This document shows, piece after piece, positions 50-862 of a stretch of 24,417 nt of DNA; position 1 is the stretch's first letter, and each line of letters starts with the position of its first letter. Both the position numbers and the translations under genes were made by a program. The notes below the pieces were generated by a model that searched no databases, was not told where the DNA came from, and was given only the letters and a program-made list of their open reading frames with translations. This DNA is from a virus, in the UHGV virus genome UHGV-0187105. One strand, given 5' to 3'.

Positions 50-451
50 TTACAGATAAGCTGTCGCTTTACCCACACCACCCAGAATGTTTTCTGCCGG
101 GATCCCCTGACGCACCAGCATCTGCATCATGTTCTGGAAATCAGCCGTTGTACCGGGTAGCTGGTTACCCAGGCCAATAGCCAGTTTATTGATGTCCTGA
201 AAGCTCTTTCCAACCTCGCCGTTCGCATCCATCATGGCGACTTTCAGCCCGGTAGCGGCGTTTTCCTGATCGGCATAAGATTTCAGGGAAAGCGTCAGCC
301 CCGCTGCCAGTCCTCCACCAAGCGCCAGCCCACCCTGTGACGCTTCTTCCGCCTGGCGTTTAAATCCCCGGATTTTCTTTTGCATTTTCGACAGCGCGGG
401 AGAAAGCCTGTCGACACCGGTGATCAACGCCTTAAGCTCAAATTCAGCCAT
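50..451 (-). CDS. Tail tape-measure protein, N-terminal segment; reading frame closes after 133 codons
   Basis: Minus-strand ORF starting 2 nt after the stop of the chaperone -1 extension, where a tape-measure gene is expected after tube and chaperone. Ala/Gly-rich, tape-measure-like N-terminus. TAA at 50-52 and a second in-frame TAA at 44-46, while the other two minus frames stay open to the window edge. Confidence 0.4.
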   Translation of the reverse strand: MAEFELKALITGVDRLSPALSKMQKKIRGFKRQAEEASQGGLALGGGLAAGLTLSLKSYADQENAATGLKVAMMDANGEVGKSFQDINKLAIGLGNQLPGTTADFQNMMQMLVRQGIPAENILGGVGKATAYL

Positions 452-626
452 GTGTGCGTTTCTCCTGCTCTATCCTGTTTGCCTGACTGACCAGCAAGGG
501 AATTTCACTGATCGGCATATTCAGCAATTCGAAAGGATTAATGCGCCAGTAGCAGGCGCAGTCAAAGAAGCGATCAGTGAGGTATTCAGCCGTCAGGCCT
601 GGAGGAAAAAACCAGCCACAAGCCAC
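444..626 (-). other. -1 frame extension of the tail assembly chaperone (GT-like frameshift product)
   Basis: ORF in the -1 frame relative to 593..862, overlapping its 3' end; a slippery heptamer lies in the overlap. The frameshift product would read through from the slip site to the stop at 444-446, not from the Met listed in the track. Confidence 0.45.
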
Positions 627-862
627 GCCGCTGCATTCAGGTCTGCCGGAGACATCTGGTCGACAGAGCTTTGCGGCACTTTCGCCAGCCGCACAATGTA
701 TTTCGACACCACATGCGCCAGAAGTCTGACTGACTCATCCTGATTCATCTGGTAGGGATACCCCAACTCGCGGACATCCTTCCCGGTGGGCTCATCAAAC
801 TCCAGTACGGAGAGTGTCTCGCCATGAGCGGTAATCGGTTTCTTTAACTCAAGCTCTTTCAT
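593..862 (-). CDS. Tail assembly chaperone (G-like, frame-0 product, 89 aa)
   Basis: Small acidic ORF between the tail tube and tape-measure genes; start overlaps the tube gene stop; ends ...AGFFLQA immediately after a slippery site. Confidence 0.6.
   Translation of the reverse strand: MKELELKKPITAHGETLSVLEFDEPTGKDVRELGYPYQMNQDESVRLLAHVVSKYIVRLAKVPQSSVDQMSPADLNAAAWLVAGFFLQA
605..611 (-). promoter_or_regulatory. Candidate -1 programmed ribosomal frameshift slippery heptamer T_TTT_TTC
   Basis: Minus-strand codons GGT TTT TTC place T TTT TTC in the X_XXY_YYZ register of the frame-0 chaperone ORF, 5 codons before its stop, with the -1 frame open downstream. Confidence 0.45.

Follow-up and report, generated by a model that had tools for sequence, protein, structure and literature searches.

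A predicted P2 gpE/gpE+E′-type −1 frameshift site in the tail assembly chaperone gene of an SfV-like prophage

Results

A slippery heptamer and an open −1 frame in the chaperone gene

The stretch of DNA analysed here, 24,417 nucleotides (nt) of the virus genome UHGV-0187105 and hereafter called the window, carries near its beginning part of a contractile tail module, in which the tail assembly chaperone gene contains a candidate site for programmed −1 ribosomal frameshifting. All feature coordinates are window positions, and the tail genes lie on the minus strand. The frame-0 open reading frame (ORF) of the chaperone gene (862..593) encodes a protein of 89 amino acids (aa) and 9.9 kDa that matches PF10109 (Phage_TAC_7; E=5.7e-16, 58.7 bits against a cut-off of 25, residues 4-86), a family titled 'Phage tail assembly chaperone proteins, E, or 41 or 14', as well as PHROG 166 'tail protein'. 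The gene is a homologue of P2 gpE and of SfV orf13, with 99-100% identity to the gene of SfV, SfI and SfII. Directly upstream is the tail tube gene (1218..862; PF10618 Tail_tube, E=2.4e-33; PHROG 185), whose stop codon shares the overlap TAATG with the chaperone ATG.

The slippery heptamer T_TTT_TTC (611..605, minus strand) is found close to the end of the chaperone ORF, the final codons of which are GCT GGT TTT TTC CTC CAG GCC TGA. Its first T is the wobble base of GGT, so that the heptamer stands in the X_XXY_YYZ register (GG-T TTT TTC), and the frame-0 stop TGA (595..593) follows three codons past the heptamer and five codons past the first slip codon TTT. After a −1 slip the first codon would be CCT at 605..603, then CCA GGC CTG, and this frame stays open for 53 sense codons followed by TGA (446..444), specifying an E′-like domain over 605..444 (PPGLTAEY...EKRTHG) that matches PHROG 32181 with E=2.5e-39. 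The predicted fusion product has 139 aa and a mass of 15.8 kDa. Its predicted tryptic peptide across the slip junction is VPQSSVDQMSPADLNAAAWLVAGFFPPGLTAEYLTDR, with an F-F-P junction, and the C-terminal peptide of the frame-0 product is VPQSSVDQMSPADLNAAAWLVAGFFLQA.

Downstream lies the 5′ part of the tape-measure gene (451..50; PHROG 28 and PHROG 26612), 133 codons long, whose ATG (451..449) is preceded by AGGAG at 466..462. The stop of the −1 ORF overlaps this ATG by 8 nt (window 444..451, ATGGCTGA). An initial annotation of this DNA had placed T_TTT_TTC at 605..611 of the minus strand in the X_XXY_YYZ register, five codons ahead of the frame-0 stop, with the −1 frame open for about 53 further codons, and all of this agrees with the codon layout, the five codons being counted from the first full slip codon. 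Its statement that the −1 frame ends 2 nt before the tape-measure start was mistaken, given the 8-nt overlap.

Conservation of the heptamer and the −1 frame

To gauge how often such a signal arises in this DNA, 28 window ORFs, most with a Pfam match and together comprising 6,385 codons, served as a control. They contain 11 in-register X_XXY_YYZ heptamers (0.17% per codon), among which the chaperone heptamer is the sole T_TTT_TTY. None of the others leads into a long −1 ORF: 53 codons follow here, against 5-21 codons for the other ten.

A scan of genome loci, restricted to one genome per species, yielded 20 loci from Enterobacterales and the betaproteobacterium Derxia with protein identities from 100 to 40%. 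TTTTTTC or TTTTTTT stands in register at the aligned G-F-F in 20 of 20, the frame-0 stop lies 5, 10, 11 or 16 codons beyond the first slip codon, and the −1 frame is open for 41-49 codons past that stop. When phage records are counted with the genome loci, the position of the frame-0 stop is not conserved, ranging from 5 to 23 codons past the first slip codon, and over all homologue sets the −1 extension runs 30-50 codons past the stop to reach the tape-measure start. Nine phage or prophage-like records have the in-register heptamer together with a −1 ORF that ends level with the tape-measure start or no more than a few bases from it. The heptamer is T_TTT_TTT in SfIV, phiP27 and ST64B, T_TTT_TTC in BgVeeders33, Pseudomonas DVM-2008 and a Haematospirillum record from a phage collection, and T_TTT_TTG in Bordetella PBb002, Pseudomonas PG1 and P2. 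An initial scan of viral contigs gave only 100%-identical copies, which are uninformative on conservation, and a Pseudomonas query was used instead; in its viral contigs, 67 of 67 distinct sequences have TTTTTTC and a 43-codon −1 extension.

The +1 frame is mostly shut within a few codons in the genome loci and the Pseudomonas contigs, closing 2 codons past the stop in the near-identical loci L004-L006, and is more variable among the phage records. The codon ahead of TTT TTN may be GGT, AGT, CGT, AAT, GAT or CCT (Gly, Ser, Arg, Asn, Asp or Pro), yet its final base is always T, which argues that selection acts on the base and not on the residue. Conservation in relatives was the test to which the initial annotation had tied its prediction of a tail-chaperone frameshift between the tube and tape-measure genes, and both the heptamer and the −1 frame are retained down to about 32% identity, with the exception of the UNVERIFIED record of Paraburkholderia phage IPK. 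By position, register, −1 ORF and conservation the prediction is supported, and the comparative data put the candidate slip site far beyond chance.

Selection on the −1 peptide

Over the region read only in the −1 frame, pairwise comparison of 12 distinct enterobacterial sequences gave 610, 368 and 1276 substitutions at −1 codon positions 1, 2 and 3. The excess at third positions indicates purifying selection in the −1 frame. The peptide motif A-x-(Y/F)-W-(R/K/H)-(I/L/V)-(N/D)-P, followed by E-L and then A-x-R-I, is kept across the set.

The −1 ORF has also been called as a small gene in its own right: the annotation pipeline PGAP gives some genomes a 60-aa ORF that in the window begins at GTG 626..624, seven codons upstream of the slip site, and that would initiate itself without any frameshift. 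In the RefSeq annotation of E. coli NT1F10 the −1 ORF is a separate 60-aa 'hypothetical protein', WP_001314907.1, and PHROG 32181 is a family of such standalone calls. No Shine-Dalgarno (SD) sequence precedes GTG 626..624, however, and none was found before the −1-frame start codons, where present, of 25 homologues; in 16 of these 25, close relatives L007-L011 included, ATG, GTG and TTG are all absent from the open −1 frame near the site. The −1 frame of P2 opens only 5 codons ahead of the slip position. From the missing start codons and SD sequences it follows that the extension would be reachable only by a change of frame from the chaperone ORF. An independent gene also leaves the conserved in-register heptamer unexplained, and we give this account almost no credence.

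Full-length database proteins that resemble natural in-frame fusions (P0001-P0006) were considered and rejected. They are singletons from raw-read assemblies in which the frame switches at scattered positions, a pattern that points to assembly or sequencing indels, and they were dropped as evidence.

Search for stimulatory signals

A downstream stimulatory structure was something that the initial annotation had named to look for. None that is conserved was found in a single-sequence fold, an alignment fold or folds of 23 homologues. The 97 nt from the heptamer onward have no notable stability (z=-1.0), the 45-nt downstream folds of the 23 homologues lie mostly within about 1.5 sd of shuffled sequences and have no common structure, and in the alignment fold (alifold) the covariation term was +0.46, giving no covariation support. 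Across homologues no conserved SD-like element was seen in the 20 nt upstream of the heptamer, and an Rfam search of the window gave no family match. The locus thus differs from stimulator-dependent −1 frameshift sites of the dnaX or IS3 type, which have a stable hairpin or pseudoknot 5-9 nt downstream, an SD-like element 6-17 nt upstream, or both.

An 8-bp hairpin, UGCGCCAGCUACUGGCGCA, with a folding energy of −13.5 kcal/mol, is present at 560..542 of the minus strand, 44 nt past the heptamer. Its stem is identical in the 10 closest relatives, synonymous third positions included, though most nearby third positions vary, and it is absent from SfIV, phiP27 and the Edwardsiella locus L020. In the window's own copy an A-to-T change (Ser to Cys) loses two pairs, leaving −10.8 kcal/mol. 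As a conventional stimulator the hairpin was rejected, being too distant from the heptamer and limited to the closest clade.

Relation to the P2, lambda and Mu systems

The closest parallel is with the E gene of P2, which shares PF10109 (E=1.4e-12 in P2, against 5.7e-16 in the window) and likewise lies upstream of the tape-measure gene. The P2 record carries annotations for both E and E+E′, linked by a −1 frameshift. According to the passage on the P2 FETUD operon in PMC3091744, citing Christie et al. 2002, the −1 frameshift takes place at TTTTTTG, gives products of 91 and 142 aa and has no downstream hairpin; the corresponding passages of PMC3091744 and PMC5009743 put its efficiency at 2-3 times that of lambda. 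The products predicted here have 89 and 139 aa, the heptamer is of the same T6N form in the same register, and neither system has a downstream stimulatory structure. When a profile of 14 predicted fusions is aligned with P2 E+E′ by hhalign, the two are collinear over 119 columns (E=1e-4), and at the slip site GFF is paired with GFL. Collinearity extends to the −1 domain and P2 E′, which share an aromatic-W/H-x-x-P...E-L...A-x-R pattern, and an 8-nt overlap of −1 stop and tape-measure ATG is common to both systems (ATGGCTGA here, ATGAGTAA in P2, at 851..858 of locus L111). The two differ in the last base of the heptamer, G in P2 (UUG, Leu) and C in the window (UUC, Phe), in the frame-0 stop, which is 8 codons past the first slip codon in P2 and 5 in the window, and in the tail sheath, FI-type in P2 and Mu-type in the window. 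Neither the window fusion nor P2 E+E′ has a match in NCBIfam, and a sequence search of the PDB with the fusion profile gave no meaningful match.

Lambda offers a looser comparison. Passages in PMC5009743, which summarise Levin 1993 and Xu, Hendrix and Duda 2004, 2013 and 2014, describe a low-level −1 frameshift at G_GGA_AAG that produces gpG and gpGT, and PMC5009743 states that neither protein is found in the lambda virion. The likeness lies in the slot between the major tail and tape-measure genes and in two products with a common N-terminus in a fixed ratio. There is no detectable sequence homology, the slipping tRNAs are Gly and Lys in lambda as against Phe and Phe predicted here, and lambda is a siphovirus with a non-contractile tail, so the resemblance is one of functional analogy and synteny and not of family membership. 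The label 'G/GT-type' in the initial annotation therefore holds for the functional class and the gene position, whereas the direct homologue is P2 gpE/gpE+E′ and lambda G/GT only an analogue.

Mu shares more of the tail module than of the chaperone. The window's tail sheath gene (2714..1218, minus strand; Pfam Phage_sheath_1, sheath_1C and domII) encodes a protein with 36% identity to Mu gpL (E=8e-91), notes in the SfV record point to Mu similarity for the neighbouring tail genes, and Mu gp41 is likewise placed between the genes for the tube (M) and the tape-measure protein (gp42). Mu gp41, however, has 144 aa and belongs to PF23746 (Gp41_Mu), with a marginal PF10109 score of 24.7 bits against the cut-off of 25; the window protein matches PF10109 and gave no PF23746 match, and hhalign found no match between the window family and Mu gp41 (probability 0.1%). 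No in-register X_XXY_YYZ heptamer occurs anywhere in the Mu gp41 gene (L110, 2553..3132), where it is the +1 (equivalent to −2) frame, and not the −1 frame, that stays open, for 43 codons past the gp41 stop. This agrees with the −2 shift given for Mu in a passage of PMC2628397 citing Xu 2004. With another Pfam family, no heptamer and a null hhalign result, Mu was rejected as the closest model. The earlier description of a 'Mu-like contractile tail module' fits the sheath and neighbouring tail genes and fails for the chaperone and slip site. We therefore describe the predicted arrangement as a chaperone and slip cassette of the P2 E/E+E′ type placed in an otherwise Mu-like tail module.

Among closer relatives, SfV orf13, its counterparts in SfI and SfII and the E. 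coli prophage protein WP_000661054.1 represent this gene with 98-100% identity; heptamer and −1 ORF are shared, and there is no biological difference. A contig labelled Edwardsiella hoshinae NBRC 105699 encodes a chaperone protein 100% identical to the window's E. coli/Shigella-type prophage gene, an identity that could reflect recent cross-genus transfer or contamination.

Phage context

Over its first 3 kb the window shares 98% identity with SfI, SfII and SfV, temperate myoviruses of Shigella and E. coli, and with several other phages of E. coli. Of 5,426 complete E. coli genomes, 1,610 contain DNA resembling the first 1.3 kb. Elsewhere in the window are head and packaging genes (HK97-type capsid, S78 protease, portal, terminase subunits and HNH endonuclease), lysis genes (holin and spanin) and genes for a Q antiterminator, Dam, RusA, a CII-like regulator and an S24-peptidase repressor. 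The window thus derives from an SfV-like temperate phage that combines lambdoid regulation with a head of the HK97 kind and a contractile tail resembling that of Mu. On the opposite strand (11216..11896, plus), flanked by the lysis genes and the HNH and terminase genes, a 226-aa ORF has a partial match to the ClpP protease (PF00574, E=7e-12) and looks like an inserted moron-type gene.

A mosaic boundary falls at about 834..859, at the start of the chaperone gene: SfIV and vB_EcoM-720R4 (98%) and phiP27 (76%) match the sheath and tube genes and then diverge. In the SfIV genome paper, chaperone and tape-measure protein alike are put below 50% identity. From this shared divergence, the chaperone and frameshift cassette appears to have been exchanged as one unit together with its tape-measure gene.

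Discussion

The features described above make it very likely that the heptamer is a programmed −1 ribosomal frameshift site in a tail chaperone gene of the P2 gpE/gpE+E′ type, carried by a prophage of an SfV-like temperate myovirus. We propose a model where most ribosomes end at the TGA at 595..593 and yield the 9.9-kDa chaperone, while a minority would pause with one tRNA-Phe paired to UUU in the P site and a second to UUC in the A site. The two (anticodon GAA) would then slip back by one base and re-pair on UUU and UUU, and the shifted ribosomes would read CCU CCA GGC and on for 53 codons to produce the 139-aa, 15.8-kDa fusion, whose reading frame ends 8 nt into the tape-measure gene. Homology with P2, together with the lambda G/GT analogy, suggests that the short form may coat the tape-measure protein; the rare long form may recruit the tube protein through its extra domain, and the efficiency of the slip would fix the ratio needed for tail assembly. 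H_HH.U_UU.Y is among the most efficient −1 motifs in E. coli, where U_UU.U_UU.C needs no stimulator to shift above background and serves insertion sequence (IS) elements (PMC4066793).

A homopolymeric slip site can also be read in another way. RNA polymerase might stutter on the T6 run and release mRNAs one base short, which would be translated normally into the fusion. The run is T6 here and T7 in SfIV, phiP27, ST64B and one metagenome-assembled genome, the invariant T before TTT TTN lengthens it and would favour polymerase slip too, and the comparative data do not separate the two processes. Appreciable slippage by E. coli RNA polymerase takes runs of about 8-9 or more A/T, whereas the window run is only 6, and in about 115 homologues it is never longer than 7 and always in the X_XXY_YYZ register. 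The homologous event in P2 is described as translational in the relevant passages of PMC3091744, citing Christie 2002, and PMC5009743, and in E. coli U_UU.U_UU.C has been demonstrated to make ribosomes shift (PMC4066793). Transcriptional slippage on so short a run is unlikely, and we attach very little weight to it.

Several points weigh against a P2-type ribosomal frameshift at this site or against its present use. The frameshift goes unmentioned in the inspected GenBank and RefSeq records of SfV-like phages, as it does in the genome papers on SfI and SfIV. The hhalign probability for the fusion profile of the window family against P2 E+E′ is only 57%. PF06528 (Phage_P2_GpE) has no match in the 53-aa extension at E<=10, whereas P2 E+E′ scores 76.3 bits; judged from these profiles, the −1 domain is a distant relative or an analogue of P2 E′, outside PF06528 as now defined. 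Neither a conserved stimulator nor an upstream SD element was found from which to estimate the slip efficiency. Among the homologues, Paraburkholderia phage IPK is the only one to lack the heptamer, having GGC TTC TTC instead (about 1440..1500 of its UNVERIFIED record). Its E′-like ORF likewise occupies the −1 frame, which is open from only 7 nt before the frame-0 stop, and either the shift takes place at another site, ...GGC GCG TAA, or the record contains a sequence error.

The point that concerns present use lies in the tape-measure gene. Phage similarity stops at window position 54, and positions 1..~53 are the end of an IS3-family insertion sequence, identified by repeat matches in E. coli and foreign to SfV-like phage sequence, so that the window begins inside the element. 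Window 1..56 is matched at 100% in 687 E. coli genomes, with 1,096 matching places in all, as many as 22 in one genome and 198 on plasmids, annotated 'IS3 family transposase'. The tape-measure ORF ends after 133 codons, where the element begins, against 611 codons in SfV (a gene of 1,836 nt). With the tape-measure gene cut in this way, the tail module is probably dead and the role of the cassette likely lost. This copy is therefore probably a decaying relic, its signal inherited from a functional phage and idle in a prophage unable to build tails, an account compatible with a P2-type frameshift in the ancestor. A substitution of Cys for Ser that is private to the window and falls in the −1 domain (DCACYW, where close relatives have DCASYW) fits such decay. 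On the other side, the isolated phages SfI, SfII and SfV share 98-100% identity with the window in the chaperone ORF, heptamer and −1 ORF, all of them intact here, and the rest of the tail module lies outside view, the window ending inside the IS. The frameshift cassette is most likely intact but inherited and currently functionless here.

The end of the −1 ORF might have a role of its own. The 8-nt overlap of the −1 stop with the tape-measure ATG has a similar geometry in most homologues, distant ones included, and it is tempting to see in it a coupling of termination and reinitiation whereby each frameshifted ribosome starts one tape-measure protein. We consider this improbable. If true, it would tie the rare long chaperone in cis to the synthesis of the tape-measure protein. 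The clade-specific hairpin at 560..542 could modulate such coupling or the slip rate.

Programmed −1 frameshifting, by which long-tailed phages obtain two versions of a tail chaperone, is a known mechanism class that includes lambda G/GT and P2 E/E+E′, and the site described here adds nothing on the mechanism of frameshifting or on tail assembly. Its value is for annotation. The public records inspected give the 89-aa product only and leave the 141-nt gap before the tape-measure gene empty, and for SfV, SfI, SfII, SfIV, phiP27, ST64B and the inspected E. coli prophages only a frame-0 product of 89-107 aa is listed. The stretch of 85-145 nt ahead of the tape-measure gene, now unannotated or given to a stray hypothetical protein, would be recognised as the E′ half of a tail chaperone fusion, and the records of this phage family corrected accordingly.

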